This document shows positions 2 through 57,673 of a stretch of DNA of 64,000 bases, one piece after another (position 1 is the first letter of the stretch; the number at the start of each line of letters is the position of its first letter). The position numbers and the translations under genes are program-made. Source of the stretch: Escherichia coli (GTDB lineage Bacteria; Pseudomonadota; Gammaproteobacteria; Enterobacterales; Enterobacteriaceae); NCBI RefSeq assembly GCF_048403405.1, contig NZ_CP183129.1. One strand, given 5' to 3'. The notes under the pieces are model-generated. The model was given only the letters and a program-made list of their open reading frames with translations, did not search any database and was not told the origin of the DNA.

Positions 2-214
2 GCGATTATTAAACGTTTACCGGGGGCAGCGGAAGCGACTTTGCCGTTGCAATCAAGTGGAGGGGCAGGTGAACGCTGGTGGTTTCTGAATGGCGAACCG
101 CTAACTGAACGCGGGCGCAACGTGACCCTGCATTTGACGGACAAAGGCGATTATCAATTGCTGGTGATGGATGAGGTGGGGCAAATAGCAGCAGTGAAAT
201 TTGTCATGCAATAG
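2..214 (+). CDS. pbpC: penicillin-binding protein 1C, 3' end (partial, continues upstream of window)
   Basis: Open frame from window edge ending at TAG 212-214 (...VGQIAAVKFVMQ*); position upstream of ndk matches E. coli gene order. Confidence 0.55.
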   Translation, partial: AIIKRLPGAAEATLPLQSSGGAGERWWFLNGEPLTERGRNVTLHLTDKGDYQLLVMDEVGQIAAVKFVMQ

Positions 215-9343: not shown

Positions 9344-9405
9344 TCACTTATCTGGTTTCCCTTTCCACACGGAGAGGGAAACCGAATAACACGCGAGGAG
9401 TATTT

Positions 9406-16100: not shown

Positions 16101-19100
16101 GCGGTTTATGTCAGTTGCCTGACGACGGCTAACAATCCTGCCAGCAGCATTACGCTGGAAGTGGTGGACCCGGCGCAGTGGAACGCGGCAGCAAATGCGG
16201 CGAAGCTGAAAAAAGGCGAAACGCTACAGGTGAAGGTGACGGTAAAAGATGCTCAGGGCAATCCATTGGGTGATATGCCTTTTACGCTGAAGCGTGGCGA
16301 TGGTTATACCCGATCAAACGAAAAACACATTGCCGGTAGCGGTGATGCGCTGGTTGCGCCGGTTGTGATCAATAGTGGCCTGGCGGATGAAACTTCGCTC
16401 AATGATACCGCCGCAGCATACAGCGCGATGACCGGTAGCGATGGCACTAAAATTCTCACTATTACCCGCCCGGATACCCATGGCACAAAAACGTCGCTGA
16501 CCGCCGCGCTCTATTCAGACACAACGAAAAAAGCGACCCTCGATACCATTTTTACCGTTGTCACCAGCCCAGACAGCAATAAAGCGAAAATGTGGGGGCA
16601 TATGCCGGAAACGGTGACGGCTGCGGATGGAACGGTCTTTAAACGCCCATTATTGTTGAAAGAGTTATCCAGTACGTCGGGTCGAACAGCGATTGCAGAA
16701 GATAATGAGGACTGGGCGCAATTTACCCAAACTCAGGCGACAAGCACATCCTCTAATGGTTGTGGTAGTGAATATGTTCCCTCTCAGGCCGGGCTGGAGT
16801 CATTGTATGAAGCCAACCGCGGCAATGCGATGAAAACGGTTCAGGGCTGGCCCGTCGCCTCAAGTTACCTTACCAGCACGACAGGCAGCAGTAGTCTGGA
16901 ACAGCGTGACTTAAAGGCCGTCAATCTCAGTTCAGGCACCAGTTCGATAATTCCATCGGCCACAAAAGAACTGCTTACCTGCCAGACGACGCCGATCGTC
17001 AAGGCTAGCCAAATCGTTCTTGAGGCTGCGGACCCCACAAAATTTGACAGTACGAATAATGTTGTCAAAGCGAAAAAAGGGGAAGAAGTCGTGGTTCGCG
17101 TGACCACTAAAGATTCGCAGGGTAACCCGGTGGGAAATACCGCGTTTACGCTTAAACGTAACCTTAGCGTCAATCGGGCAAATGCGTCTACAACGGTGAC
17201 AGCAGGCGCGCTCATCGTGACGGATGCCTGGGGTAACACGCAGAGTAATTTTTCCTCAACAACAGCACTGATTTATGGCGTTACCGGCGCAGATGGTACG
17301 ACAACACTTGCACTGAAACAGGACAATACCACGGGTTTAAAAACCGAACTGACCGCCATGCTGGATACAGATAATAACGTAAAATCAATGCTTCCGGTGG
17401 TCTTTACGGTGATAACCAGCCCCGATACCCCTAAAGCAAAATTCTGGGGGCATATGGCCGAAACGATGACCGGTGCTGGCGGGCTTATTTATAAAAGACC
17501 GTTATTGCAAGATGAGCTTTCCGTTACAACCAGTCGAAGCTCTTTTCAGGAAGATGGAGAGAGCTGGTCACTGTTCTCGCCGGACCAGTCGAACAACACA
17601 TCTGTAAATGGTTGCGGTGCAGGATATGTCCCGGTTGAAAGTGAGCTGGAGTCACTGTATGCCGATGAAGGTTACGTGCCAATACATGACGTTACGGGAT
17701 GGCCTGTATCACGCGCCTATATCTCCAGTACGGTTGTTGCCTATTACACTCAAACATTTAATTTTAAAGCGGTTTCGTTAAAAACGGGTGATGGAACGGA
17801 GGTCATGTCAAGCAGTATAGGACTGCTAAGTTGTCGGGCTACCCCAGTGGCGGTGACCAGCCACATTATTGTTGAAGCGAACGATGCGACACAATTTGTC
17901 AAAGTTGACGAAACCCTCAGCGCACTAAAACGGAAAAAAGGTGACGACGCGGTGATTCGCGTGGTGACAAAAGATGCGCAGGGAAATGTCGTACCAAATG
18001 TTCCGTTTATTCTCAAACGTGAAGGATCGACAAATCGCCAGAATGTACAGTTGTCGAACAGAACTATCACTGTAATCAACGCTGCGGGAACGTCGGCAAG
18101 AGTGGATACTCCATCAATCTCCCTTTATGCGGTGACAGGTGCAGACGGGACAGCCACGTTTACGGTAAAGCAGGATGATTCTATAGGCCTGGTAACCAAT
18201 GTGTACGCTCAGGCCTATCAGTCGAGCCTGGAATCCAACAAATTACCCGTGATGTTTACCGTGATAACCAGCCCGGATACCCCCCTGGCAAGTTACTGGG
18301 GGCATATGGCGGAAACGTTCACTACGCGTTCTGGTACTGCCTTCAAACGCCCCTTACTCTCTGCTGAAAGATCGTCGGGCCAGTCGTTTATAGAAGACAA
18401 TGAAGAGTGGGCCGTGTTGAGATCGGCAACAAAGGGGGATATCGATAAAAGCGGGTGCGATGTACATTATCAACCACTGTTAAGCGAACTACAGGCATTG
18501 TACGACGAACACCCAAGTCGTGCGATAAAGACCGATCTGGGTATTCCGGTAAATAGCTACTGGTGGGCTTACGACATGGTGGCATATGCGGGTAACTGGT
18601 ACGATCAATATATTTATCTGTTAAATGGATCAAGTGGAAGAGCGTCTTCAACCACCTCGGCATTAATGCTGTGCCTGGTAAACCCTCATCCAGAGGCGGC
18701 TTCTATTGAAATGACCTCAACGGCGGAGGATGCAACGAAAACGGCCAGCAATGATGGCAGGCCCAGCGCAACAGCGAAGAAGGGAGAGGTTATCCCGATG
18801 ACTGTTACGGTGCGAGATAGCGCAGGCAATCCACTGCCAGGTGCCAGCTTTAACCTTAAACGAGGAACTGCGCTGAACCGCGCTAAAGCTGCGTACGATG
18901 CCTCTGCAGATGATCTTACCATCATACCTGTGGAACCTACTGGGGTAACGTCAATCTTGTATGGGGATGGGACGCAGGCTCTTCTGAAGACAGGGAGCGA
19001 TGGTAAAGCTACGTTTGAGGTCAGCCAGAATAGCAGTTATGGGCTGTCAACGCCGCTCAGCGCAGAACTCATGCGCGATACCTCGAAAAGCGTCACGCTG

Positions 19101-21203
19101 GATGTCATTTTCACGGTGATAACCAGCCCGGATTCGCCAAAAGCGAAATACTGGGGCCATATGCCGGAAACGTTTACCAGTTCGGCAGGCGTGACCTTCA
19201 AGCGCCCATTACTGGCAGCGGAAGCGACTACGGGGAGCTCGGTAAACGGTAATAATGAGACATGGTCATATATATATAGTACTCAAAAAGCGACGGCAGA
19301 TTGTTCGCTGGAATATCAACCGCGCCTCAGCGAATTGCAGGGGTTATATGACGATCACCCAAACGGGGCGTTAACGAAAGATCTGGGGTTGCCGATAGCG
19401 TCAGGAAACTGGTGGATTTATGAATTGCTTAACTCCAATGGTAGCTCCTGGTATTACCAGGTCTTTAACCTAAGTACGGGACGAGCATCATCCGCACTCT
19501 CTCCGGTTGCTCTAATGCTCTGCCTGGCACAGCCTCACTCTAAGCCGTCAAGCGTTACCCTGACTTCAATAGCATTTGATGAGACGAGAACCGCAAGTAA
19601 CGGCGGTACACCTTCGGCATCGGCGAAAAAGGGCGAGACAATCCCGTTAGTCGTGACAGTAAAAGACCAAAATGGCAACCTGCTGAGTGGCGAGAGCGTG
19701 ACGCTTCAGCGGGCACAGGCGAAAAGTCGTTCAGGAATTAGGCCCTCATCGTCGGCAGATGATCTTATTGTAGATGTCATCACACCGACAGCGGTCAGCA
19801 TTCCCTTTACTCAGGATACGGCAAAATGGCTTGGCTTTACCGGCAGTGATGGCACAGTGACGTTCAATGTTACGCAAAACGCCACCACCGGCCTGGCAAC
19901 GCCGTTTACGGTCTCGCTTGCACAAGATCCGCAGATCACGTCAAACCTGGACCTGATATTTACCGTGGTCACCAGCCCTGACTCCCTGGATGCCAACTAC
20001 TGGGGCCATATGCCAGAAACGGTGACAGCGGCAAATGGAACCGTCTTTGAACGACCGAAATTGTGGAAGGAACTGCCATCGACCTCCGGGGTAAATAAAA
20101 CCAATAACAATAATGAGGACTGGCCCTATTTTTCGTCAACCACTAAAGCAAATTCCAGCCTCAGCCCTTGTGAGGAAGCCCGGCAACCGTTGCTCAGCGA
20201 TATGAAGTCACTGTATCAACGTTATCCCAATAACACCCTTACGACGGAAACTGGCTGGTCAGTTTATTATTACTGGTGGGCGCAGGATAAGACTACAGAT
20301 GGTAAAAATCAGTCGCTCAATATGAAAGATGGCACAACGACATTGAATGGTAATGCCGCTTATCAGGCGTGTCTGGTGTCTGCGCGCGCGACGGTTTCCA
20401 GCGTCACACTGACCTCAACAGCGTTTGATGCTGACAGCCAGGCGGCGAAAGTGAAAAAAGGCGAAGCCATGCCCGTTACCGTGACGGTGAAAGACAGCGC
20501 CGGGAATACGGTACCGAATGTGGAATTTACTTTGAAACGTGGCGATGCATCGCCGCGTAACGCTGGGGCGACGTTGTATGGTGATGTGGTGGCGATGGAC
20601 GATCTCATCGTTCAGCCGTTATCTGGTTCGGCTGTTACGCTGAGTGAAAGCGGTAATACCATTAGTGGCATGACAGGCGCGGATGGGACGGCAAGTTTTA
20701 CGCTCCGCCAGGATAATACCCCTGGTTATAAAACGCCACTGACGGTTACTCTGGCTAATTACGCTTCCGCGACAGACACGCTGGACGCTATTTTTACGGT
20801 ACCAACCAGCCCGAATGTTTCCTCGGCGCACTTTTGGGGACATATGGCAGACACTGTAGTGGTGAATGGTAAATCGCTACATCGACCGTTGTTAACGACA
20901 GAATTGCCGTCCGGGGCTAATCCCGTATCCTCACCGATTATTAACTACGAAAACTGGGCTTCTGCACATATCATTGATGCCAGTAAATGGGATATTGCAA
21001 GGCAGTGTGGCAGCATAGAAAATGCACCGACATACAATGAATTAGAGTTGTTGCACACTGTTTTTAATTCACTGGGATGGCCGTCTTCACCAAGTTTTCC
21101 TTATTTGTCCTCTCAACAGTGTGGGATGGACGAAGGCACTGGAGCACAGGATTGTAGTATCACGCTAATGAATAAACCGGGTCTGGTGACCTGCTTCCAG
21201 TAA
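13161..21203 (+). CDS. ratA: giant repeat-containing surface protein (RatA-like)
   Basis: 2680-aa uninterrupted ORF with signal peptide and about 9 tandem ~283-aa repeats each carrying FTV(I/V)TSPD...WGHM. Confidence 0.8.
14050..20900 (+). repeat. tandem ~850-bp coding repeats inside ratA-like gene
   Basis: TSPD...WGHM motif recurs at approx. 14.10, 14.91, 15.72, 16.56, 17.41, 18.26, 19.12, 19.97, 20.80 kb. Confidence 0.75.
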
Positions 21204-37265: not shown

Positions 37266-37539
37266 CCTGCAACTTGCCGTTAAAGGTGAATACTTCGATG
37301 CCATGATTCGCGGGGAGAAAACGGAAGAGTATCGCCTGTGTAATGACTACTGGAATAAGCGAATTATGTTCCGCGAGTATGACCGCCTGATTATCACAAA
37401 GGGATATCAGAAGCGCGACGATTCCAGCCGCAGAATTGACGTCCCGTATGACGGATATGAAATCAAGACAATCACACATCCGCACTTCGGCGATAAACCG
37501 GTAAAGGTGTTCGCTATAAAGGTGAATATTGATGGCTAA
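37258..37539 (+). CDS. ASCH-domain-like protein
   Basis: 93-aa ORF MANLQLAVKGEYFDAMIRGEKTEEYR typical ASCH N-terminus (memory-based). Confidence 0.55.
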   Translation: MANLQLAVKGEYFDAMIRGEKTEEYRLCNDYWNKRIMFREYDRLIITKGYQKRDDSSRRIDVPYDGYEIKTITHPHFGDKPVKVFAIKVNIDG

Positions 37540-37870
37540 ATCAGCAGCAGAGCGCAAAGCCGCGCAGCGCGCTCGGCAGTCCGCCGCCGGTGAGCGCAAA
37601 ATTGAACTGGTGCTGGATAAGCAGGAGCAGGAAATGCTGGCGCGGAACTGCGCCGCCCGGCGCCCTGGTCACGATCCCTATGAAATGGCCGAGTACATCG
37701 CGCTGCTGATCCGCCAGGATGATGCACGTGTGCGCGGGCGTATAAAATCGATCAGTAGAAAACGTTGCGGTAAGTGCGGCGAGAGAGTTCCAGTTAATTC
37801 ATGTCCGTGTAATGGTGACTCGCAATGCTGGGTGACTAAAGGCTGGCATGAAACGAAATTAATAGTGTGA
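37529..37870 (+). CDS. hypothetical protein with C-terminal Cys cluster
   Basis: 113-aa ORF; CGKCGERVPVNSCPCNGDSQC; stop codon lies inside the TGTGACATGTCACG palindrome. Confidence 0.45.
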   Translation: MMAKSAAERKAAQRARQSAAGERKIELVLDKQEQEMLARNCAARRPGHDPYEMAEYIALLIRQDDARVRGRIKSISRKRCGKCGERVPVNSCPCNGDSQCWVTKGWHETKLIV

Positions 37871-37920
37871 CATGTCACGAGTAGATTATGCATGATGAAT
37901 TTGATGGGTTTTGAATACTG

Positions 37921-37946
37921 CCGCCAACTATGGCGGCTTTATTTTG
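37921..37946 (+). terminator. rho-independent terminator before terminase operon
   Basis: ccgcca-acta-tggcgg followed by ctttatttt. Confidence 0.6.
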
Positions 37947-37956
37947 CATGGTACTA

Positions 37957-37971
37957 TTACCACAACGGTAA
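37957..37971. promoter_or_regulatory. perfect TTACC-N5-GGTAA palindrome upstream of terS
   Basis: TTACCACAACGGTAA 18 bp upstream of the terS ATG. Confidence 0.5.
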
Positions 37972-37988
37972 CTATTACCACGGTGGTT

Positions 37989-38585
37989 ATGATGCCTGCT
38001 GAACCTAAAACCTATAAACGCAAATCAACGCAATTTAAGCCGCTCACAGCAATGCAGGAGGCTTATTGCCAGTCATACATCAAAACGCCTGAAAACCAGA
38101 CTCAGGCAGCGATTAACGCAGGATTCTCCCCAAATACAGCGGCAGTTAAAGCCAGTGTCATGATGCGCGATGAACGCATTCAAAAACGGATTGCCGAGTT
38201 GATGGAGGAGCGCAACAAACGAATGCGCGTCAGTGCTGATTACGTTCTCATGCGCCTGGTGGAGATCGACCAGATGGACGTGATCGATATCCTCAACGAC
38301 GATGGGAGCCTTAAACCAATCCGCGAGTGGCCGAAAATCTGGCGCACTACGCTTAGTGGCTTTGATCTGTCATCGACCATCATGAACATGAACGAGGATT
38401 CGATAGAGACAATCCTCAAAAAAATTAAATGGCCTGACAAGGTGAAGAACCTCGAACTGATTGGTAAGCACGTCGACGTCAACGCATTCAAAGAACGCCT
38501 GGATGTTAATGTGAATGTGACAATTGCTGATCGCATAGCGGCAGCCAGGAAGCGACTCAAAGAACGTCAGGATGGTAATCAGTGA
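37989..38585 (+). CDS. terminase small subunit
   Basis: About 198 aa immediately upstream of and overlapping terminase large subunit; basic N-terminus, HTH-like segment. Confidence 0.7.
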   Translation: MMPAEPKTYKRKSTQFKPLTAMQEAYCQSYIKTPENQTQAAINAGFSPNTAAVKASVMMRDERIQKRIAELMEERNKRMRVSADYVLMRLVEIDQMDVIDILNDDGSLKPIREWPKIWRTTLSGFDLSSTIMNMNEDSIETILKKIKWPDKVKNLELIGKHVDVNAFKERLDVNVNVTIADRIAAARKRLKERQDGNQ

Positions 38586-40057
38586 CAGATACAGCGTTAT
38601 CTCCTGAAGAGCAGTTGATCGAGGATATTGCAGGGTTTACTCACGATCCGCTTGGTTATGCCCTCTATGCGTTCCCGTGGGGGGAAGAGGGTACTGAACT
38701 GGCACATGCTACCGGCCCACGTCAGTGGCAGGCTGATGCGTTCCGAGAGATACGTGATCACCTGCAGAATCCAGAGACGCGCTATCAGCCGCTTATGCTG
38801 GCACGCGCTTCTGGTCACGGTATTGGTAAATCCGCATTCATCTCAATGCTGATCAACTGGGGCATGTCCACTTGCGAGGATTGTAAGGTCGTGGTGACCG
38901 CCAACACCGACAACCAGCTACGAACGAAGACCTGGCCGGAAATTATCAAGTGGTCAAACCTTGCTATCACGAAAGACTGGTTTACCTGTACCGCTACCGC
39001 GATGTACAGCAATGACCCTGGGCACGACAAGCGGTGGCGCGCTGACGCAATCCCCTGGTCTGAGCACAACACTGAGGCGTTCGCGGGACTACACAACGAG
39101 CGCAAACGCATCATCGTGGTGTTTGATGAAGCGTCGAACATTGCGGATCTGGTGTGGGAAGTTGCCGAGGGTGCGCTTACGGACGAAGACACCGAAATCA
39201 TCTGGGTGGCGTTCGGGAACCCGACGCGTAACACCGGGCGTTTCCGTGAGTGTTTCCGCAAGTACAAACACCGCTGGAAGTGTGCGCAGATTGACAGCCG
39301 GACGGTGGAAGGCACCAACAAACAGCAGTTGCAGAAATGGGTTGATGACTACGGGGAAGACAGCGACTTCGTTAAAATCCGTGTGCGCGGCATATTCCCT
39401 GATGCATCTGAATTGCAGTTTATTCCTACCGGTCTTACTGACGAGGCAATGAAACGGGTGGTAACTGCTGCGCAGGTGGCACATGCTCCGGTGATAATCG
39501 GCGTTGACCCTGCATACTCCGGTGTTGATGACGCGGTGATATACCTGCGGCAGGGGCTGCACAGTAAGGTGCTGTGGACCGGCAACAAGACCATTGACGA
39601 TCTGATTATGGCAAAGCGTATCGCTGACTTTGAAGACCAGTATCAGGCTGACGCGGTGTTCATCGACTTCGGTTACGGAACCGGTTTGAAGTCAATCGGT
39701 GACGGCTGGGGTCGTACATGGCAACTTGTTCCGTTCGGCGGTGCGTCCACTGACCCGCAGATGCTTAACAAGCGTGGGGAGATGTTCAACTCATGTAAGA
39801 CATGGCTGAGGCTGGGCGGCATGCTGGATGACCAGGAAACAGCAGACGACCTGTCGGCGGCAGAGTACAAAGTTCGTGTGGACGGTAAAATCGTTATCGA
39901 ACCGAAGGAAGATATCAAAGAGCGTCTTGGGCGTTCGCCGGGTAAAGGCGATGCGCTACTGCTGACGTTTGCTTTCCCTGTGTCGAAGCGTCTGCGAATT
40001 CCTGGGCAGCAGAACCAGCAAGGCAAGGCCATCACAGATTATGACCCGTATGCTTAA
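38582..40057 (+). CDS. terminase large subunit
   Basis: 491-aa ORF with Walker A-like GHGIGKS and ATPase/nuclease two-domain size. Confidence 0.85.
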   Translation: MTDTALSPEEQLIEDIAGFTHDPLGYALYAFPWGEEGTELAHATGPRQWQADAFREIRDHLQNPETRYQPLMLARASGHGIGKSAFISMLINWGMSTCEDCKVVVTANTDNQLRTKTWPEIIKWSNLAITKDWFTCTATAMYSNDPGHDKRWRADAIPWSEHNTEAFAGLHNERKRIIVVFDEASNIADLVWEVAEGALTDEDTEIIWVAFGNPTRNTGRFRECFRKYKHRWKCAQIDSRTVEGTNKQQLQKWVDDYGEDSDFVKIRVRGIFPDASELQFIPTGLTDEAMKRVVTAAQVAHAPVIIGVDPAYSGVDDAVIYLRQGLHSKVLWTGNKTIDDLIMAKRIADFEDQYQADAVFIDFGYGTGLKSIGDGWGRTWQLVPFGGASTDPQMLNKRGEMFNSCKTWLRLGGMLDDQETADDLSAAEYKVRVDGKIVIEPKEDIKERLGRSPGKGDALLLTFAFPVSKRLRIPGQQNQQGKAITDYDPYA

Positions 40058-40108
40058 TCCGCTGGTGGGGATAATGTCGTTGATATCCTCTGATGAGGAT
40101 AAAACAAA

Positions 40109-40133
40109 GCCAGCTCATCGGCTGGCTGTTTGT
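40109..40133. terminator. bidirectional terminator between terL (+) and gp49-like gene (-)
   Basis: agccagc-tcatc-ggctggct hairpin with T-rich flanks on both strands. Confidence 0.5.
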
Positions 40134-40147
40134 GACATGTCACGGTG

Positions 40148-40504
40148 TTATTGCTCGCTTAGCTTCTGCTTCAGCAAGTAACCTTCGAGCATCCAGATTT
40201 TGTTTACAGCATTCTGCCGGGCAATCTTCCGACCAATTTCTGCATCAAAGTTTTCCGGGCTTGCACAGGCGCTCTCTCCGGTGACGGTGAAGCCATTCTT
40301 CAGCACCAGTACGCAGAAAGTAAGGAGGTCTGTAGATTTATGCGCTGTCCACGCATCGCCAATGCCCATATTGGCGGCACGAATACCGTCATAAGCAGTA
40401 AAGAAATGCTCTTCAAGAATGATGCTTTCGATATATTGGGGCGTAACTCGCGGTGCCGTTTTGCCTTTCTCAACGATTTCTTTTTCGATTTGCTGGTCGT
40501 TCAT
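40148..40504 (-). CDS. Gp49-like phage protein
   Basis: 118-aa ORF; resembles the N15 gp49-like family as recalled. Confidence 0.5.
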   Translation of the reverse strand: MNDQQIEKEIVEKGKTAPRVTPQYIESIILEEHFFTAYDGIRAANMGIGDAWTAHKSTDLLTFCVLVLKNGFTVTGESACASPENFDAEIGRKIARQNAVNKIWMLEGYLLKQKLSEQ

Positions 40505-40702: not shown

Positions 40703-40779
40703 TGGCGTGGCATGCAGGATTCGAACCTGCGACCAACCGCTTAGAAGGCGGTTGCTCTGTCCAACTGAGCTAATGCCAC
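40703..40779 (-). tRNA. tRNA-Arg (anticodon UCU), phage-encoded, CCA end encoded
   Basis: Reverse complement GTGGCATTAGCTCAGTTGGACAGAGCAACCGCCTTCTAAGCGGTTGGTCGCAGGTTCGAATCCTGCATGCCACGCCA folds as cloverleaf; anticodon loop CTTCTAA; T-arm GGTTCGAATCC; close to E. coli argU. Confidence 0.85.
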
Positions 40780-41426: not shown

Positions 41427-43106
41427 ATGGCGGAAACAACTAAAGAGCGATTGAACAAACAGTTCGCACAACTTGAAAGCGAGCGTCAGTCGTTCGAGCC
41501 GCACTGGCGCGAGTTGAGTGATTACATCAACCCGCGTGGTTCCCGCTTTCTGACTTCTGAGGTCAACCGTAACGATCGACGCAATACACGCATTATTGAT
41601 TCGACCGGGACTATGGCGGCGCGCACTCTCGCCAGCGGCATGATGTCAGGCATCACAAGCCCCGCGCGTCCGTGGTTTCGCCTGGCTACGCCTGATCCTG
41701 AAATGATGGATTATGGCCCTGTTAAGTTGTGGCTTGAGGCGGTGCAGAACCGCATGAACGATATGTTCAATAAGTCGAATCTCTATCAGTCGCTGCCGCA
41801 GTTATACGGAAGCCTCGGCACATACAGCACTGGTGCAATGGCAGTGCTGGAGGATGACGAGGACATTATTCGCACAATGCCATTCCCGATAGGCAGTTAC
41901 TACCTAGCTAACTCACCTCGTGGCAGTGTGGACACCTGTTTTCGCAAGTTCTCTATGACTGTTCGTCAGCTTGTTCAGGAGTTCGGGCTAAATAACGTCA
42001 GCGAATCCGTAAAAAGCATGTGGGAAAGCGGAACCTACGAGAAGTGGATTGAAGTGATGCATTCGGTTTACCCGAACATTGACCGCGATACATCGAAGCT
42101 GGATAGCAAGAACAAGCCATTCAAATCGGTTTATTACGAGGTTGGTGGCGATAACGACAAGTTGTTGCGTGAGTCCGGATTCGATGAGTTTCCAATTATG
42201 GCTCCGCGCTGGGAAGTTAACGGCGAAGATGTTTATGGATCATCATGCCCGGGTATGCTGGCGCTTGGACCTGTTAAGGCATTGCAGCTTCTCCAGAAGC
42301 GCAAGTCGCAGATCATCGACAAAGTGACAAACCCTCCGATGGTTGCCCCTACCACTCTCAGAACACAGAGTGTTTCGTTACTTCCTGGTGGCGTCACATA
42401 CGTAGATCAACTGACTGGACAGGAAGGATTAAGGCCTGTTTATCAGGTTAACCCTAACACTGCGGATTTAATCAGCGACATCCAAGATACGCGGCAGACC
42501 ATCAACAGCGCCTACTTTGTCGATCTGTTCATGATGTTGCAGAACATCAATACCCGCTCGATGCCTGTTGAAGCGGTGATCGAAATGAAAGAAGAAAAAC
42601 TTCTGATGTTGGGGCCGGTTCTGGAGCGTCTGAACGACGAATGTCTTAATCCTCTCATTGACCGCGCTTTCTCGATGATGGTGCGTAAAAACATGCTGCC
42701 GCCACCGCCTGACGCGATGGAAGGCATGCCCCTGAAGGTCGAATACATTTCCGTCATGGCTCAGGCGCAGAAGTCTATCGGCCTGTCCAGTCTGGCGTCC
42801 ACGGTTAACTTCATTGGTCAACTTGCGCAAGCGAAACCAGAAGCTCTCGACAAACTCAATGTTGATCAGGCGATCGATGCATTCGCTGATATGTCCGGAG
42901 TGTCTCCAACCGTCATTGTTCCGCAGGAACAGGTTGAGCAGGCTCGCCAGCAACGGGCACAGCAGCAACAGCAGCAACAAATGATGGCGATGGGAATGGA
43001 GGCGGCACAGGGCGCCAAGACGCTAAGCGAAGCTAAAACTTCGGATCCGAGTGTTTTGTCAGCTATGGCGAATGCAGTTAGTGGTCAGGGTGGGCAATCA
43101 CAATGA
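41427..43106 (+). CDS. portal (head-to-tail connector) protein, podovirus type
   Basis: 559-aa ORF; Gln-rich C-terminal tail (QQRAQQQQQQQMMAMGMEAAQG) as in T7-type portal proteins; position after terminase. Confidence 0.8.
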   Translation: MAETTKERLNKQFAQLESERQSFEPHWRELSDYINPRGSRFLTSEVNRNDRRNTRIIDSTGTMAARTLASGMMSGITSPARPWFRLATPDPEMMDYGPVKLWLEAVQNRMNDMFNKSNLYQSLPQLYGSLGTYSTGAMAVLEDDEDIIRTMPFPIGSYYLANSPRGSVDTCFRKFSMTVRQLVQEFGLNNVSESVKSMWESGTYEKWIEVMHSVYPNIDRDTSKLDSKNKPFKSVYYEVGGDNDKLLRESGFDEFPIMAPRWEVNGEDVYGSSCPGMLALGPVKALQLLQKRKSQIIDKVTNPPMVAPTTLRTQSVSLLPGGVTYVDQLTGQEGLRPVYQVNPNTADLISDIQDTRQTINSAYFVDLFMMLQNINTRSMPVEAVIEMKEEKLLMLGPVLERLNDECLNPLIDRAFSMMVRKNMLPPPPDAMEGMPLKVEYISVMAQAQKSIGLSSLASTVNFIGQLAQAKPEALDKLNVDQAIDAFADMSGVSPTVIVPQEQVEQARQQRAQQQQQQQMMAMGMEAAQGAKTLSEAKTSDPSVLSAMANAVSGQGGQSQ

Positions 43107-43399
43107 CAGATTACGAAGATGATCAACTGAAAGAAGAAAACGCCCGTAAGCAACGTGACATGGCACAGCGTGAAATTGATGACATTCGCTTTGTCATGAG
43201 CAGTGAACAGGGGCGTCGCGTTGTCTGGTCGGTGCTGGAGAAAGGCCGTGTGTTTTCCGCTATCTCACCGATGGACGCTATGGCAATGGCATTTAATGAG
43301 GGGCAACGCAATCTGGCGCTGGAACTGTTTCAGCGCGTTATGGCGCATTGCCCTGAACAGTATTTGAAGATGGCCAAAGAGGCCAGTGAACAGGAGTGA
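43103..43399 (+). CDS. hypothetical head-module protein
   Basis: 98-aa ORF, ATGA overlap with portal stop. Confidence 0.45.
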   Translation: MTDYEDDQLKEENARKQRDMAQREIDDIRFVMSSEQGRRVVWSVLEKGRVFSAISPMDAMAMAFNEGQRNLALELFQRVMAHCPEQYLKMAKEASEQE

Positions 43400-50422: not shown

Positions 50423-53169
50423 TGCCTGTTGTTCCTACTACATCCGGACGTCAGGTGCAAAGTCGTGGTGTGCAAACCGGTGGTTTTCAGATCTTCGATG
50501 TTCCTCAAGCAGATCAGGTGCTGGCGAATGTCGCAGATCAGTATGCGGTGGCATATGGTGAAGCCAGGCAGAAAGCGAATGTTGCTATGGCCCAGGAGGC
50601 GTTACTGCAATTTAACCAATTTGCAGATGACCAGATTAACAACCCTGAAAGTGGGCTGATTTCTAAACAGGGTAAAAACGCTCTTGGTCAGAGTGACGCT
50701 GTTATGAAAAATATGCAGGAAAGGGCTCAGGCATTATTAGGCTCAATTCCTGAAAGTGAGGAAAGGAATAAATTATCCTTTCAACTCCAGCAGTCTATGC
50801 AGTCTTATTACAATCAGGCACGTCGATATGAAGTTGGGCAGTTTCAGCAATTCCAAGATCAAACGTATTTGTCAGGAAATGCATTGGCTGTCACTCAGTC
50901 TGCGGGGCTATATAGCGATAACCAAGCATTTGTCGATTTAGCCAAGCAGCGATTTGAATCTATTGATCAATACGCTGATGCGCATGGGCTTCCTGATGAG
51001 TGGCGTGTTCAGCAGAAAACTCAGCTCAAGGAACAAATGGGGCAGCAAGCATGGATAGGAAATATCGCTCAAAAATACAACGAGTTTCTTCAGGTTAATG
51101 GAGAGCCAGGGGATCTTGATGGTGTGAGTCGTGCAATATCACATGGTAATTCATTGGATGCTCGTGGTTTACGTAATAATAACCCTGGTAATATTGAAGC
51201 GAGCAAATCTAACCCGTGGGAAGGTCAGATCGGTAGCGATGGACGTTTTGCAACGTTTGCTACCCCTGAGCATGGAATCCGCGCGTTGGGTAAAAATATG
51301 TTGTCTTACCAGCGTCAAGGCTATGACACCGTTAGCGAGATTGTTAATCGCTATGCTCCGGCTAGTGATGGTAATAATACTGATGCTTATATTAGGGCAT
51401 TGTGTGGTGAGCTTGGTGTTGGGGAGAATGATCAGCTTGATATCTCTAACCCAAAGACACTAGCTGCTTTATGTGCTGGGATTATTAAACACGAAAATGG
51501 CAGTATGCCTTATAGCACCGAACAGCTTGAAACTGGTATCTCGGCAGCCCTTGGTCTAACTAACCTTGATTCACCTAAGCGTTATACAGGCAATGCGGCA
51601 TTTGATGCTATGAGCCCTCAAATGCAAATACAGGCATTGAGGCAGGCTAATGAGCTGAGAAATCAGTACCGCCAGCAGTATGCGGACCAGCTTAGCACCG
51701 TAGTTAAAGATGCATATTCAGCCCTTGATGAAGGATTGAAACCTGAGAAGTTACCTTCTGAGGACGATTTTATCCGGGCCAATGGTCCGCGCATTGGCGC
51801 TATGAAGTGGAAGGATATGCAGGCGCAGATACAATATGGAGGTGTCATTGGTGCCGCTAAAGACCTCACTCCAGAAGGACGACAAGACATTCTTGAACGT
51901 TTACGTCCACAGGATCCAAACGCTCCTGGATTTGCAGCTAACCAGCAACGCTGGGAGAAAATGCAGGCCAAATTTAAAGAGATGGATAGGGAGTGGGAGA
52001 TTCAGCAGGGAAGAAACAGGTTCGTGTCTTCAATGCAAAATAACTTCCCGCTGGACCCGAACGACAAAAACAATCAGGCAGCGGTAGACCGTTATTTCGC
52101 GCAGGATATCGCGCCTTCGTTTTCCATATCTGATCCGCAGAGCATCAATACACTGGTCACCGTCACAACTAAAAGCGGCATGATACCAACTCAGGTTAAA
52201 ACAATGCTTAACAGTGGAGCAACATCAAGAGATCCTGCGCTGGTTGTCCCGATGGCAAAATTCTACGGTCAGTTATTCGATAATAATCCGGCGGCAGCGG
52301 CAACACTTGATAAAAGTACGATGGCATTTTACGGCAAGGTTTACGATTATTCCCGCGCTGGCGTGCCGGAGGATAAGGCTGTTGATATGGCTTACAGCCA
52401 GGTGTTCCAACAGGATGACCGAATGAAACAGATGCTTTCCACTGCCATGCGAGACAAAAAATATGTCGCGGCGAGGGCAACTGCTGCACAAAATAACGCC
52501 AGCAGTCTGACTTCCTTTGGTTCGTGGTCTCCGGATATTACCGATCCAGGAAAATCAAATGCGGCCTATCAGCGAGATTACCAGACAATTTACGATGCTA
52601 ACTTTGTACAGACAGGTGGCGATGCAGAACAGGCTGAGAAAATGACCAATGCCATGATCAGAACCACCTGGGGAGTTTCTACGGTTAATGGCAAAGCAGA
52701 GGTTATGAAGTATGCACCTGAGGCATTGTACGGAGTAAATAATGGTGCTGGTAACTGGATACAGGGGCAGTGGGAGCAGGAAAAACGCGAGCTTAAATCA
52801 AAATCCTTTGGCGGTCCTCGCAGTGATACGGACTTAATACTTGTTTCTGATGGCCTTACGGCAAGGGATAGGAGTTATGCTGTTATGGTTTTACAGCCTG
52901 ACGCAAACGGAGCGATAGAACCGAGAAATTATATTGGAGAAAATGGTCTCCCTGTTCGTTTCAAGCCGGATCAGCTGACATCTCCAATGTACAGGCAAAC
53001 CATTAAGTTCCAGCAACAGCGTGTTGATGAGGCTAGAGTGCGGAGAGAAGGCAATCCGCTGCCGCAGTTCAGCAATAAAGATGGATATACTCCTCCAGAT
53101 CTGACCAAACCATTCGGTTATGGTTCAGCCAATTACCTTCCGAGCAATATATACGCAGGGGGCAAATAA
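50422..53169 (+). CDS. internal virion/ejection protein (gp15-like)
   Basis: 915-aa ORF in the core-protein position; contains a conserved-looking segment GLRNNNPGNIEASKSNPWEGQ...GIRALGKNM. Confidence 0.5.
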   Translation: MPVVPTTSGRQVQSRGVQTGGFQIFDVPQADQVLANVADQYAVAYGEARQKANVAMAQEALLQFNQFADDQINNPESGLISKQGKNALGQSDAVMKNMQERAQALLGSIPESEERNKLSFQLQQSMQSYYNQARRYEVGQFQQFQDQTYLSGNALAVTQSAGLYSDNQAFVDLAKQRFESIDQYADAHGLPDEWRVQQKTQLKEQMGQQAWIGNIAQKYNEFLQVNGEPGDLDGVSRAISHGNSLDARGLRNNNPGNIEASKSNPWEGQIGSDGRFATFATPEHGIRALGKNMLSYQRQGYDTVSEIVNRYAPASDGNNTDAYIRALCGELGVGENDQLDISNPKTLAALCAGIIKHENGSMPYSTEQLETGISAALGLTNLDSPKRYTGNAAFDAMSPQMQIQALRQANELRNQYRQQYADQLSTVVKDAYSALDEGLKPEKLPSEDDFIRANGPRIGAMKWKDMQAQIQYGGVIGAAKDLTPEGRQDILERLRPQDPNAPGFAANQQRWEKMQAKFKEMDREWEIQQGRNRFVSSMQNNFPLDPNDKNNQAAVDRYFAQDIAPSFSISDPQSINTLVTVTTKSGMIPTQVKTMLNSGATSRDPALVVPMAKFYGQLFDNNPAAAATLDKSTMAFYGKVYDYSRAGVPEDKAVDMAYSQVFQQDDRMKQMLSTAMRDKKYVAARATAAQNNASSLTSFGSWSPDITDPGKSNAAYQRDYQTIYDANFVQTGGDAEQAEKMTNAMIRTTWGVSTVNGKAEVMKYAPEALYGVNNGAGNWIQGQWEQEKRELKSKSFGGPRSDTDLILVSDGLTARDRSYAVMVLQPDANGAIEPRNYIGENGLPVRFKPDQLTSPMYRQTIKFQQQRVDEARVRREGNPLPQFSNKDGYTPPDLTKPFGYGSANYLPSNIYAGGK

Positions 53170-56100
53170 TGCCGATATATGAACAGGATCCTAAAGAGTT
53201 GCTTGGCGAGGATATTCAGCAAATAGCAGCACCTGATGACAGTAATTTCTATATGGAAACACCTTCTTTGCTTTCTGCTGTGAACCCATTTACCAGTGAT
53301 CAACGCGTTCAAAGGTCTAGACAAGCAGCATTTCGTATAGATAACACGCTGGGTAGCTTTATTGCCAGTGCTCCTTTCAGTCAGTTTGACAGGGTTGAAG
53401 GATATAACCCATTTGATAACGATGCAGCAGATATTAAAGGCTATGAAGATTTTGCAGATTCGTTTATCAACTCCGGTTCGCATGAAGAAACAATGGCAAT
53501 TAAACATCGAATCGATCAGCAGAGAGCTGACATGGAATACAATTCAGGCTTGGGATTTGCTGGTACAGTCTCTTCTGTAGCAATGAGATTAGCAGATCCA
53601 TTCAATGCGATTTCTATGTTTATTCCGTTCGGCGCTGTCGTTCGTGGCGGTCGTATTGCAGAAACAGCCGGACGTTTTGCTTTAGCCAATGCTGCTGGCA
53701 GTGTTGCTTCAGAGGCCGCATTGCAGGCCACTCAGGAAGCTCGCTCACCGATGGAGAGCGTATCGAACGTTGTTGTTGATGCTCTCGTTGGTGGGATCCT
53801 TGGTGCTGGTGCACAGCTACTTGCTGGACCTAGCGCGCGCGAGGCAGTGGTTAACTCAGTAGGTAATCATTTGCGAGGTATGGATTCTCCTCAAAGCATT
53901 GGTGCAGCTCAGGTTTTCAATACCACACTCGATCAGGAACAGCTTGCTGGACTTGGACTTGCTAACAAAACGTTGAGTGTCACTCCTGCTGGCCGCTTGG
54001 CGCAATCACCATCTCTTGTTTCCCGTCAGATTAACCAGCAGCTTGCCGAAAATAACTATTTCTTCGCCAAAAATGATGAGGGGTTGGCTACGTTTACGGC
54101 AGTCGAGACTAAGATTAAGCAATACGACGCCATGCTTTATAAGCAGATGGAAGCTACTCGTGATGCTTACCAGCAGTACAGCAAATCTGTCAGCGCCCGC
54201 GGCGTGAAGAGGATGAACTTTATTGATTTCAATGAAGCTGTTGGCATGGCTATGCGCCGTGGTGATCAGAGTGATATTCCTGAGGTTTCACAAGCAGCCG
54301 CCAGAATCCGCCCCATTTTTGAGACCACAAAAGCCCGTATGCAGGAATTGGGGATCCTTCCTGAGGATATCGATGTCGTGACGACGAAGAGTTATCTTCC
54401 CCGCATTTATAAGTTCGATAAGATACTTTCCGACCGCACTGAATTCAGAGGGCGAATTGCCAACTGGATACAAGGGATTAGTGCCAAAGGTGCTGACAAA
54501 GCAGGTCAGCGAATTGAAAAGATAAATTCATTGCTAAAAACTGCAGAGGAATCAGCACCGCGCGCTGATGCTCTCGCTAGTGAAATCGCTGAAGCGGAGA
54601 AATGGTCTGGTAAAAAAATTCTACTCATGGAAGAACTGGATAAACGAAATAAGCTTATATCTCAGGAGACTGACACACAGGCGCGTCTTACAAGAATAGA
54701 AAAAGAGTTGGCCGAGACTTCATCAGAAAAACTTCAGGCAAGAATGATGAAAGAAAGCTCTGACCTTAAAACACGCCTTGATGATATAGCGCAGGCAAAG
54801 AGTGAGCTTCCTGTCTATCAGCGCCATATGGAGTTGCTGGATAATCCACGGAAATATCGTTCTGAGCTTCGCCGACTGCAAAAACGGGCAAATTCAACCA
54901 CAAGGCTGAATGCAAGCCGCGAGCGAGCACTGAAGCAGATGGAGCCTCTATCCCGAGAGGAAGCAGAGGACGCTGCTGACGAGATCGTGAATAAAATAAT
55001 AGGCGCACCTTCCGGGCTTGTACCAGCCGATATTATCCCAGAGAGACTCGTTGGTCGGGCTGGTTTCACTAAAAGCCGAACGCTGCTTATTCCTGATGAG
55101 CGTATAGAAGATTTTCTTGAATCAGATGTTAACTACATCATGGAAAGTTATCTCCGGCAGGTGGCACCAGAAATTGAGCTGACTGCGCAGTTTGGCCGTA
55201 AAGATATGGGGGAGCAAATCCGTCAGGTTAGTGAGGAATATACCCGGCTAATAAAAGAGGCTAAAACACCTAAACGACGTGCAGCTCTTGAGAAGCAACG
55301 GGAGGCTGATATTAGGGATATTACGGCTATGCGTGACCGACTGCTTGGTACTTACGGCGCACCTCAAGATCCACGCAGTTTCTTTGTTCGTGCCGGGCGA
55401 GTTGCTAGGAATATTAACTTCCTCCGTTTGCTTGGTGGAATGACCGTCTCCGCTGCAACTGATCTGATGCGACCGATGATGCAGCATGGCCTGAGAAAAT
55501 CTCTCGGACCAATGGTAAGCATGCTTAAAAATATGGACTCAGTGAAAATTGCAACCAGGGATTTGCGAGAAATGGCAGTTGGGCTTGATTATGTCCTGTC
55601 TACGCGCACAAAGGCTATAGCGGATCTTACTGACCCCTATAGCCGGAGAAGCGCCGCTGAGCGAGGTCTGAACTGGATGACGCAGAAATTCGGTAACTGG
55701 ACGCTGATGAATCAGTGGAACAGCGCACTTAAATCATGGTCTGGGATGATAGTGCAGTCGAGGATACTTGACGCGGCTCGCCAAGTTTCTGCTGGTGGCA
55801 CGCTCTCCAAAAGTGAAATGCGGAAGATGGCACAGGTCGGCATCAATGAAGATGTTCTGCGCCGAATCGGGGAGCAATTCGGGAAGCACGGAGAGGATAT
55901 GGACGGGCTGTTAACCGGGCATAGTCATCTGTGGGATGACCGTTTCGCTAGAGAGATTTTCCAGTCTGCAGTGCTGAAAGATGTAGACTCAGTGATTGTA
56001 ACGCCTGGCGTAGGTGATACACCGCTGTTTTTTAGTAAAGAAGGCTGGAAGATGATCACGCAGTTCAAAACGTTTATCTTCGCACAGCATAACAGGGTGC

Positions 56101-56558
56101 TAGTATCTGGTATCCAGCAGGGCGATGCTGCATTCTATCTTGGTGCGCTTGGCACGATTGCGCTTGGCTCAATGGTCTATATGATGAAACAGAAGTTAAG
56201 CGGTCGCGATATCGACTACAGCTGGAATAACCTTGTGAAAGAGGGGATCGACCGGGGCGGAATGCTTGGCTGGCTCTCTGAGCCGCTGAATACCGTTGAG
56301 AACATAAGCGGCGGTAGGTTTGGTCTTGGCGCGATGTTTGGTGCGCCTCCGGTATCAAGGTTTCAGAGTCGTAATGCTATTGGTGCTTTACTTGGTCCTA
56401 CCTTTGATCTTGGCGGTGATGCCGCGACGGTTGCAAATGGTGTACTTAACGGAGAATTTGACAGCCAGCAAACCCACGCTGTCCGTAAAATGCTACCTTT
56501 TCAGAATCTGTGGGCGATATCACCATTACTAAATAAAGTTGAAGAGCAGATGAAATAG
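53169..56558 (+). CDS. internal virion/ejection protein (gp16-like)
   Basis: 1129-aa ORF, largest core protein, precedes tailspike region. Confidence 0.5.
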   Translation: MPIYEQDPKELLGEDIQQIAAPDDSNFYMETPSLLSAVNPFTSDQRVQRSRQAAFRIDNTLGSFIASAPFSQFDRVEGYNPFDNDAADIKGYEDFADSFINSGSHEETMAIKHRIDQQRADMEYNSGLGFAGTVSSVAMRLADPFNAISMFIPFGAVVRGGRIAETAGRFALANAAGSVASEAALQATQEARSPMESVSNVVVDALVGGILGAGAQLLAGPSAREAVVNSVGNHLRGMDSPQSIGAAQVFNTTLDQEQLAGLGLANKTLSVTPAGRLAQSPSLVSRQINQQLAENNYFFAKNDEGLATFTAVETKIKQYDAMLYKQMEATRDAYQQYSKSVSARGVKRMNFIDFNEAVGMAMRRGDQSDIPEVSQAAARIRPIFETTKARMQELGILPEDIDVVTTKSYLPRIYKFDKILSDRTEFRGRIANWIQGISAKGADKAGQRIEKINSLLKTAEESAPRADALASEIAEAEKWSGKKILLMEELDKRNKLISQETDTQARLTRIEKELAETSSEKLQARMMKESSDLKTRLDDIAQAKSELPVYQRHMELLDNPRKYRSELRRLQKRANSTTRLNASRERALKQMEPLSREEAEDAADEIVNKIIGAPSGLVPADIIPERLVGRAGFTKSRTLLIPDERIEDFLESDVNYIMESYLRQVAPEIELTAQFGRKDMGEQIRQVSEEYTRLIKEAKTPKRRAALEKQREADIRDITAMRDRLLGTYGAPQDPRSFFVRAGRVARNINFLRLLGGMTVSAATDLMRPMMQHGLRKSLGPMVSMLKNMDSVKIATRDLREMAVGLDYVLSTRTKAIADLTDPYSRRSAAERGLNWMTQKFGNWTLMNQWNSALKSWSGMIVQSRILDAARQVSAGGTLSKSEMRKMAQVGINEDVLRRIGEQFGKHGEDMDGLLTGHSHLWDDRFAREIFQSAVLKDVDSVIVTPGVGDTPLFFSKEGWKMITQFKTFIFAQHNRVLVSGIQQGDAAFYLGALGTIALGSMVYMMKQKLSGRDIDYSWNNLVKEGIDRGGMLGWLSEPLNTVENISGGRFGLGAMFGAPPVSRFQSRNAIGALLGPTFDLGGDAATVANGVLNGEFDSQQTHAVRKMLPFQNLWAISPLLNKVEEQMK

Positions 56559-56559
56559 G

Positions 56560-57411
56560 ATGAAAAAAATAAATTTGTTTTTTGGCATAGTGCTTTCAAT
56601 AGTCTCTGTAAATCCTACAGCTGCCAGTTCATTGCAATGCAATAAGGATAACTTTGATGCATGCAAAACGTGCGAACAATTATCAAAGGCTATCGACTTA
56701 AAAGAACCTAATCGTGGCGATTACTATAGAGGGGCTTTATGGAATGGGCTTTACGCCTCTTATGTAATTAATTGCCCTGTGGTTGCAGAGAAGTTACTGA
56801 GCCATGGTGCTATACCATCATATGGCGGATATATGGGGTCTATGGGGGCGGTTCTGACAGGAAAATGGCCTCATAACAATGAATCAATAAATCTTTCATG
56901 GGCAGATTTGCTTATAAAACATGGATTTGATGTTAATAGGCATACGGGGAATTATAAATCAGCTACTGAAGTATGGGCTATAGATAAAAAACAGATTGAA
57001 TATAAGTCAGTTTTTGACAAGTTAATTCAATCCAGCGAAGTAAAACCACTCGATCCTTCAAGAAATTTAGAATGGTGTGCGTCTGAAGGGTATCGCTCAG
57101 TTGTCGTTTATTCCCTTAACTCATGTATAGAAAATGCTATAAAACGTTTGGATGACGGTGTTTCTTCAGCGTCTGATATTTCATCAGCAGCCGTAAATTC
57201 CTGTACTAGCGATGTAGAAAATTTCAATAAGCATTTGGCATGCAAAGCAGCTGTTAAAGAAAACTCTGATAAAGAGAGAAGCAACGTTTACCAGTTATTA
57301 ACCAGTGATAGTCAAATGAATAAAAATGTTATTGATATGCTGAAGGAAAGAAATATTGAAACGGTTCTTGAATTTAGAGCTGAAAATCGATCAGCGAAAA
57401 CTGCACAGTGA
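56560..57411 (+). CDS. secreted moron protein, low GC, possible ankyrin-like repeats
   Basis: 283-aa ORF with signal peptide MKKINLFFGIVLSIVSVNPTAAS; markedly AT-rich relative to flanking late genes; weak ankyrin-like segments (VAEKLLSHGA, ADLLIKHGFDVN). Confidence 0.55.
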   Translation: MKKINLFFGIVLSIVSVNPTAASSLQCNKDNFDACKTCEQLSKAIDLKEPNRGDYYRGALWNGLYASYVINCPVVAEKLLSHGAIPSYGGYMGSMGAVLTGKWPHNNESINLSWADLLIKHGFDVNRHTGNYKSATEVWAIDKKQIEYKSVFDKLIQSSEVKPLDPSRNLEWCASEGYRSVVVYSLNSCIENAIKRLDDGVSSASDISSAAVNSCTSDVENFNKHLACKAAVKENSDKERSNVYQLLTSDSQMNKNVIDMLKERNIETVLEFRAENRSAKTAQ

Positions 57412-57418
57412 TCAAACA

Positions 57419-57442
57419 GGCCGCTTTCGCGGCCTTGTTTTT
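57419..57442. terminator. terminator hairpin (ggccgctttcgcggcc + T-run), copy 1
   Basis: ggccgctttcgcggcc followed by ttgttttt; identical hairpin recurs at 60670. Confidence 0.7.
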
Positions 57443-57601
57443 AACGAATGCCACCGCCGCCAGGGCGGGAATCCGCAGAACGCCCACCGCAGCGGGAGCC
57501 GTCAGCGGCAGTATCGCTGTCGTGCTGACAACGACCGGCAAAGGCCTGAGTTGAAGCTACCAGAGACAACAAAACGAACAGTGCAGCAAATGCTTTTTTC
57601 A
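57441..57601 (-). CDS. small secreted peptide (hypothetical)
   Basis: 53-aa ORF MKKAFAALFVLLSLVASTQA... with signal peptide; short, weak RBS. Confidence 0.3.
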
Positions 57602-57673
57602 TTGTGAAATTTCCATCTATAAGCCACCTCAATGTGGCGTCAATGAGTGTAGCACTGACTTTTGTTTCGTCCA

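Follow-up and report, generated by a model that had tools for sequence, protein, structure and literature searches.

A conserved 12-bp palindrome around the terminase genes of an epsilon15-like prophage of Escherichia coli: a putative operator of the gp55 regulator family

Short symmetric DNA sites are recognized by a variety of bacterial and phage proteins. The consensus of the CRP binding site is TGTGA-N6-TCACA, phage N15 contains dispersed SopB centromere palindromes, and "boundary sequences" are located at the module junctions of lambdoid phages. MatP, which contains a ribbon-helix-helix (RHH) domain (PDB 4D8J; sequence verified), is the protein of the MatP/matS system of the E. coli Ter macrodomain. 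The matS sites match the 13-bp pattern GTGAC[AG]N[TC]GTCAC (PMC3603311), and published work has reported their absence from the prophages of E. coli and Salmonella. The element described here is a short palindrome flanking the terminase genes of a prophage, within a stretch of 64,000 nucleotides of E. coli DNA (assembly GCF_048403405.1, contig NZ_CP183129.1), which was analysed as a whole and is referred to below as the window. By analogy of function, its closest counterparts appear to be the pairs formed by RHH repressors and their operators, such as those of Arc and Mnt of phage P22.

The word TGTGACATGTCACG (14 bp) is present as an exact copy at two places in the window, 37866-37879 (site A) and 40131-40144 (site B). 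Its core, GTGACATGTCAC, is a perfect 12-bp palindrome, located at 37867-37878 and 40132-40143, respectively. A preceding sequence-only reading of the window had described a 14-bp palindrome in two identical copies; the words are indeed identical and situated where it placed them, whereas only the inner 12 bp are palindromic, the ends of the 14-mer being T...G. The palindrome is a real, selected cis element, and comparison of phage genomes indicates that it is very probably a protein-binding site, for which the most likely binder is the putative regulator encoded by the gene ending at site A (a homolog of gp55). The features of this part of the window are as follows.

37529-37870, + strand: gene of the gp55/epsilon15 gp49 homolog (113 amino acids), the last gene of the early-right operon and the candidate palindrome binder
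37866-37879: palindrome copy 1 (site A), containing the TGA stop codon (37868-37870) of the gp55 homolog
37920-37945, + strand: intrinsic terminator closing the early-right operon (stem GCCGCC...GGCGGC, then a T run), 40 nt past copy 1
37953-37981: element with the Rep-operator-like sequence ATTACC-ACAAC-GGTAAC (37956-37972), within direct repeats ACTATTACCAC, before terS
37989-38585, + strand: terS (Terminase_2)
38582-40057, + strand: terL, 94-99% identical to terL of epsilon15 and phiV10
40108-40127: bidirectional intrinsic terminator separating terL from the reverse cassette
40131-40144: palindrome copy 2 (site B), starting 4 nt past the terminator hairpin
40148-40504, - strand: gene of the Gp49_66 (Phage_gp49_66) family, a replaceable reverse cassette whose 3' end abuts copy 2

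Inspection of the sequence confirmed that the two copies enclose a terminator, the Rep-operator-like palindrome, terS, terL and the second terminator, and nothing more. It also bore out that the last early gene has its stop codon within copy 1 and that copy 2 lies just past the bidirectional terminator behind terL, with 4 nt between its end and the stop codon of the Gp49_66 gene on the reverse strand.

Taken alone, the repetition of the palindrome within the window is modestly unusual and constitutes weak evidence. Repeated 14-mers are not remarkable there, since 57 distinct ones recur. The window contains 16 perfect 12-bp palindromes, of which GTGACATGTCAC is the sole repeated one, and a repeated 12-bp palindrome appeared in 13 of 300 Markov-1 simulations (P ~0.04 within the window). 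The decisive evidence that the palindrome is more than a product of chance is its conservation in other phages.

By homology, the window holds an epsilon15/phiV10-like (Uetakevirus) prophage. The region shares 94-96% identity with E. coli prophages and phages of the phiV10 type, and approximately 80% with Salmonella phage epsilon15 and Enterobacter phage Tyrion; it is matched in about a third of the complete E. coli genomes (1,676 of 5,426). Related Uetakeviruses, e.g. ZX5, integrate at guaA (PMC9782041). The genome of epsilon15 contains perfect 12-mers at three positions: (i) 39612, at the stop codon of gp49, (ii) 2142, past the terL terminator, and (iii) 19517, on the stop codon of gp18 and directly before a terminator. 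The 12-mer occupies the same three places in phiV10, the first copy (site A) with one mismatch, and three perfect copies are found at the equivalent places in Tyrion. The third site of these relatives (site C) marks the end of the structural operon, at its junction with a convergent ant cassette. Among the three phages the 12-mer is kept while its flanks diverge, the terminase-region DNA of epsilon15 and Tyrion being ~80% identical to that of the window. The base preceding the core is nearly always T, although the codon to which it belongs varies.

The same picture emerged from 78 IMG/VR loci gathered with the gp55 protein alone, 76 of which were informative. Site A is present at the gp55 stop codon in ~75 of these loci and site B in ~55, the latter being absent where another cassette follows terL. 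A block of the form terminator-NNTT-palindrome-GGYGTTA was identified in 41 of 64 distinct sequences downstream of terL. Site C, checked at the homologous position, is missing from the window prophage, where the following feature was found.

57418-57443, + strand: terminator identical to that behind phiV10 site C, preceded here not by the palindrome but by the end of another gene (56560-57411)

The differing distal module meets this conserved terminator exactly where the relatives carry the third palindrome, and the loss of site C is thus attributable to module replacement at the end of the structural operon. As judged from these genomes, the sites are a set of two or three per genome and not a pair dedicated to the terminase genes.

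A further copy in the window deviates from the palindrome at one position.

43155-43166: copy GTGACATGGCAC with one mismatch, within the gene that follows portal (43103-43399), of uncertain status

A copy at this position is present in phiV10, and not in epsilon15 or Tyrion; the same variant is paired with a perfect site in locus L204. Elsewhere in IMG/VR, the 14-mer was encountered inside Q-like genes (where it encodes R-D-M-S-Q), in a large open reading frame (ORF), in a high-GC phage and in the repeat region of an alpha-proteobacterial replication gene; these occurrences were judged unrelated to the element. In the high-GC phage (L045, 11858-11892), two copies of the 12-mer lie 23 bp apart and are apparently intergenic. 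In the alpha-proteobacterial phage (L089, 8584-8873), two copies separated by 278 bp are placed inside a large ORF (8340-9380), which is situated downstream of a probable replication gene, and one of them stands amid more GTCAC/GTGAC words.

Across phage types, the available genomes indicate that the site travels with the gp55 gene and not with the terminase. Site A is unchanged irrespective of what comes next, be it the terminator, Rep operator and terS, a promoter with a LexA box and an umuD-like gene, another terminator, or an abutting gene. Where the stop codon of gp55 has shifted, the palindrome trails it by 2-7 nt, which argues that its presence at the stop codon does not reflect a coding constraint. 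The inserted promoter with a LexA box (TTGACT-17-TATACTGT-N8-ACAG) is located 6 nt past the palindrome in many relatives (L026, L066, L077, L090 and L120), and was also observed in L025; the umuD'-like gene that it drives (MGFPSPAADYVEQ...) is located between gp55 and terS.

The linkage of a short symmetric site with the regulator gene extends from close relatives to distant ones. The distant gp55 homologs were drawn from a library of 1.8 billion proteins; two locus scans, each made with one distant homolog, yielded a single locus apiece. The sites of the homologs are listed below.

L206, N15-like element (TelK, Q, Nu1/GpA terminase), 52% to gp55: three perfect copies in 20 kb, one of them on the stop codon
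L213, 55% to gp55: copy 2 nt past the stop codon
L205, 57% to gp55: GTGACCGGTCAC on the stop codon
L210, 62% to gp55: GTGACCTGTCAC on the stop codon
Pantoea AH07, 58% to gp55: GTGACCTGTCAC on the stop codon
Yersinia P2-like phage, 44% to gp55: TTGTGACGCGTCACAA on the stop codon
L204, P2-like prophage, 38% to gp55: two sites 33 bp apart, 4 kb away
L221, Vibrio phage K303, 34% to gp55: three GTGAC-N2-GTCAC sites, against 0.035 expected

The chance expectation for an exact 12-mer is ~0.001 per 20 kb. Two of the sites of L206 lie inside genes, and two of the three sites of K303 are placed exactly 19 nt before a start codon, in one case that of terS. The common core of the whole family is GTGAC-N2-GTCAC, whose half-sites do not vary whereas its 2-bp centre does (AT, CG, CT, GC or AC); such a combination is characteristic of base-specific recognition of paired half-sites by a symmetric dimer.

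Two further arrangements were observed among these phages. In K303, a 13-mer at 19491-19503, GTGACACCGTCAC, fits the matS pattern and overlaps the stop codon of a gene, beside the three 12-mer sites. In L186, a different podovirus-like phage with a gp55 homolog, two perfect copies (15504-15515 and 16118-16129) bracket one gene of 190 amino acids between the protease-like and major head genes, and the first copy supplies the TGA stop codon of the upstream gene.

The gp55 protein is labelled as a transcriptional regulator solely by family transfer (phrog_536), and sequence searches of Pfam, NCBIfam and PDB gave no match. Members of this family occur in Uetakevirus, N15-like, P2-like, lambdoid and Vibrio phages. 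Aligning 55 diverse members revealed (i) a basic N-terminal segment, with nearly invariant R9 and R14 in an N-terminal helix, (ii) a strand-helix-helix core and (iii) a C-terminal Cys cluster, in which C80 and C83 are invariant and C100 is nearly so. The AlphaFold model of gp55 has a predicted local distance difference test (pLDDT) score of 93, and its Foldseek match is TTHA0139 (probability 0.92). In a linked-dimer model (predicted template modelling score, pTM, 0.76), residues 23-30 of both copies turn into beta strands, as expected for an RHH dimer. On these models, gp55 is confidently predicted to be an RHH dimer that pairs through its N-terminal strand and carries an additional C-terminal Cys cluster. 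The sole PDB profile matches of the C-terminal half are TraR and YbiI, both marginal (E ~0.05), and the Cys spacing of gp55 is CxxC-x8-CxC-x5-C, versus CxxC-x17-CxxC in the C4 zinc finger of DksA/TraR; we regard this resemblance as a lead.

Our preferred explanation, to which we assign about an even chance of being correct, is that the palindromes are operators of the gp55-family regulator at operon junctions. At all three positions, the sites of the examined epsilon15-like phages have a stop codon on one side and an intrinsic terminator on the other, when read on one of the two strands. A strict terminator hairpin is present within 45 nt in 34 of 55 distinct site contexts, versus 9 of 400 random positions. 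In phage epsilon15, repressor operators are annotated where each late unit starts, and the Rep-operator-like element of the window (37956-37972) is homologous to one annotated repressor site of that phage (feature 'protein_bind repressor 12..27'). Outside the epsilon15-like genus, the site is more often found 9-25 nt before a start codon, just upstream of the ribosome-binding site, a placement that fits a simple operator or a roadblock.

In the proposed mechanism, gp55 would be made from the early-right operon after induction and, as a dimer, would grip each palindrome symmetrically with its RHH core and basic N-terminal helices. In epsilon15-like phages, the sites occupy the short non-coding gaps at operon junctions, each with an intrinsic terminator alongside: (i) at the end of the early operon ahead of terS, (ii) where terS-terL meets the convergent reverse cassette and (iii), in the relatives, where the structural operon meets the convergent ant cassette. 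Because the sites lie in such gaps, the bound protein would most likely control transcription across the junctions, either as a roadblock or insulator reinforcing termination, or by gating read-through to the unit that follows. The "bracketed" look of the terminase genes arises because the small terS-terL operon lies between two such junctions; the bracketing itself is incidental. Of the ideas put forward in the sequence-only reading, that of paired binding sites for a regulator is the best supported, as the sites are linked to gp55; that the pair would be dedicated to the terminase does not hold, given the third site in relatives.

Several observations weigh against the proposed role of gp55 and its sites. 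Outside the epsilon15-like phages most sites are not beside terminators, and control at junctions is for this reason the least secure element of the explanation. About a quarter of the close relatives (~20 of 76) lack copy 2 and the window prophage lacks site C, which argues that the extra sites are dispensable. The gp55 gene of L186 has no site at its own stop codon, no site was found in the DNA at hand of the distant homologs L201, L211 and L215, and L025 contains site B with no gp55 gene within 3.4 kb upstream of terS. Part of the linkage between gene and site could be mere co-inheritance of neighbouring DNA. The fold-search scores of gp55 are modest and no RHH model of Pfam is significant. 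Finally, a search of the paper library for the 12-mer had no hit. Searches of it on SPC32H and on epsilon15 regulation yielded nothing about the palindrome element.

A variant of the proposed mechanism would make gp55 a site-tethered modifier of RNA polymerase: an RHH dimer sitting on GTGAC-N2-GTCAC next to an intrinsic terminator would touch the transcribing polymerase with its TraR/DksA-like zinc module and toggle termination at the junctions, a factor-dependent checkpoint encoded in the DNA and unlike either Q or N. In a related scenario, the matS-like sites, shorter than matS by one base, would interact with the MatP-dependent organisation of the chromosome. We consider these ideas quite unlikely.

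Other explanations dispense with a dedicated phage operator. The palindromes might be recombination or "linker" words at module borders, assisting exchange through homology or an unknown site-specific enzyme, with protein binding being secondary. Homology with relatives indeed breaks off at 37878-37880 (at least 10 loci) and at 40150-40153 (6 loci), small-gene and moron insertions begin right past copy 1, and at least 6 unrelated genes of the reverse strand have their ends 4 nt away from copy 2. At site C, the homology of many phages to the phiV10 site and terminator stops just past the terminator, and the junction of the window prophage to a different tail-end module falls exactly at the expected position; the two copies in L186 bracket a single gene of 190 amino acids. 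The same breakpoints would nevertheless be produced by a conserved functional island amid variable cassettes, with no role in recombination. Moreover, a stretch of 12-14 bp is very short to support homologous exchange, the sites have no linked recombinase, and the site centre varies between phage groups while the half-sites are fixed, which points to recognition by a protein over DNA-DNA homology. Recombination of terS alleles also takes place inside the bracket: they are 83-100% identical, while the adjoining terL genes are ~99% identical (L123-L200), which indicates frequent recombination at the terS/terL boundary. The comparison with related prophages proposed in the sequence-only reading thus revealed both conservation and breakpoints at these positions. 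Its suggestion of a module-exchange junction is borne out insofar as homology often ends at the sites; no case was seen, however, of a whole terminase module swapped at both of them, and we regard a recombination role as unlikely. A function in packaging, with the palindromes as pac or terminase-binding sites on either side of the terminase genes, was raised in the same reading and is an idea to which we give hardly any credence. It draws on the position of the sites around terS-terL in the window, on the K303 site 19 nt ahead of terS and on the phiV10 GenBank record, which opens inside copy 1, at the first base past the gp55 stop codon; this, however, is merely the position past the stop codon of the last gene. 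A pac site of a headful terminase would travel with the terminase type, in or beside terS, whereas the palindromes occur with the unrelated terminases of lambda type (Nu1/GpA) and P2 type (GpP/GpM), and far from any terminase genes. Site A stays with gp55 when inserts part it from terS, the third site is 19 kb away, and copy 2 is absent in about a quarter of close relatives.

The location of the epsilon15-like sites, which on one strand lie past a stop codon and ahead of a terminator, and of those in other phages, which precede a start codon by 9-25 nt (by exactly 19 nt in two cases in K303), would also suit an element acting in RNA, i.e. a hairpin or protein-binding word of a 3' or 5' untranslated region that steers mRNA stability or the translation of a neighbouring gene. 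The presence of an ASCH (putative RNA-binding) gene ahead of gp55 agrees with such a role, while the structure of the word does not: it can fold into no more than a stem of 4 bp with a loop of 4 nt, it is used inconsistently in predicted folds, its stem bases never co-vary (the centre alone changes) and it has no Rfam match. These properties make a role in RNA highly unlikely; in addition, two L206 sites lie inside genes and the linked protein has a predicted DNA-binding fold. We infer that the binding is to DNA rather than RNA. It might, instead, be a host protein that reads the sites, either MatP or another factor of Enterobacteriaceae and Vibrio, gp55 being unrelated to them. The hosts of the site-bearing phages (Escherichia, Salmonella, Klebsiella, Enterobacter, Yersinia and Vibrio) belong to the taxa in which MatP occurs. 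The half-sites are identical to those of matS (GTGAC-RNY-GTCAC; PMC3603311), and K303 additionally carries one true matS-pattern 13-mer. Against this, the spacer is 2 bp and not 3 bp in every case, which alters both spacing and phase, and true matS reportedly does not occur in the prophages of E. coli and Salmonella; recognition by a host protein would also leave unexplained why several unrelated phage types have the site on the stop codon of one particular gene. This explanation is very improbable.

Three other features of the window deserve mention. A tiny ORF (37889-37915, + strand; ATG CAT GAT GAA TTT GAT GGG TTT TGA) is located between copy 1 and the terminator and is kept in the E. coli group of relatives only. 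The prophage contains a tRNA-Arg gene (anticodon UCU; 40703-40779, - strand), which is located between its Gp49_66 cassette and its portal operon. At its distal end (53169-57411; ORFs of 1129 and 283 amino acids), the structural operon is unlike gp19-gp21 of phiV10, and right behind the terminator at 57418-57443 there is a short reverse-strand ORF (57447-57605, - strand), which, read by eye, has a signal-peptide-like start (MKKAFAALFVLLSLV...) and contains several Cys and Gly residues.

The control of late genes in epsilon15-like prophages is poorly understood. The pairing proposed here joins an unannotated, strictly conserved DNA word to an uncharacterised, Pfam-less regulator family (phrog_536). 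If gp55 does act at these sites, they would provide a handle on how these phages separate their early, terminase and structural transcription units, would explain the build-up of cassettes and morons exactly at these points, and would constitute a compact orthogonal operator/regulator pair. The near-identity of the word to matS is curious, as prophages otherwise avoid matS.

Comparison with described systems reveals several partial similarities. The palindrome reads TGTGA-N4-TCAC(G) and does not conform to the CRP site. Nor is it an intrinsic terminator, as its stem has at most 4-5 bp and there is no T run; the real terminators are separate neighbours. Like the SopB palindromes and the lambdoid boundary sequences, it occurs in a few copies at gene borders that coincide with mosaic junctions; the sites, however, have no linked partner of the ParB/SopB type, the associated protein being a predicted RHH protein, and epsilon15-like phages, unlike N15, integrate instead of replicating as plasmids. 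With matS the similarity is closer, since the half-sites GTGAC and GTCAC are identical and the core equals matS minus one central base. The spacer, however, is 3 bp in matS and 2 bp in the palindrome, and the 13-bp matS pattern was not found in the window, which contains the two 12-mers with the 2-bp spacer only. No homology of gp55 to MatP was detectable beyond the generic RHH fold.

The order of elements at site A resembles that of the Q/QBE-PR'-tR' region of lambda: the last early regulator gene, a site on a weak promoter-like sequence, a terminator and the late genes. The promoter-like sequence at copy 1 (GTGACA-18-CATGAT) scores 9/12 and is followed 24 nt on by the terminator, and its epsilon15 counterpart is GTGACA-17-TAAATT. 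Shuffled sequence gives as many matches, so that a promoter, plausible at site A alone, is no better supported there than in shuffled sequence. Unlike PR', sites B and C have no promoter-like context, and the putative start at copy 1 lies only ~15 nt before the terminator. A role for gp55 as a Q antiterminator was rejected, as it matches no Q family of Pfam and the N15-like relatives L201 and L206 encode a separate Phage_antiter_Q protein.

The remaining group comprises the RHH repressor/operator pairs, i.e. Arc and Mnt of P22, CopG, the ParD/TacA antitoxins and AmrZ, with which the gp55 system shares a small, predicted RHH dimer beside a short symmetric site. It differs from them in that gp55 possesses, in addition, a conserved basic helix at its N-terminus and a Cys cluster at its C-terminus, and in that its putative site is placed not at the promoter of its own operon, but on the stop codon of the regulator gene and at operon 3' ends, next to terminators.

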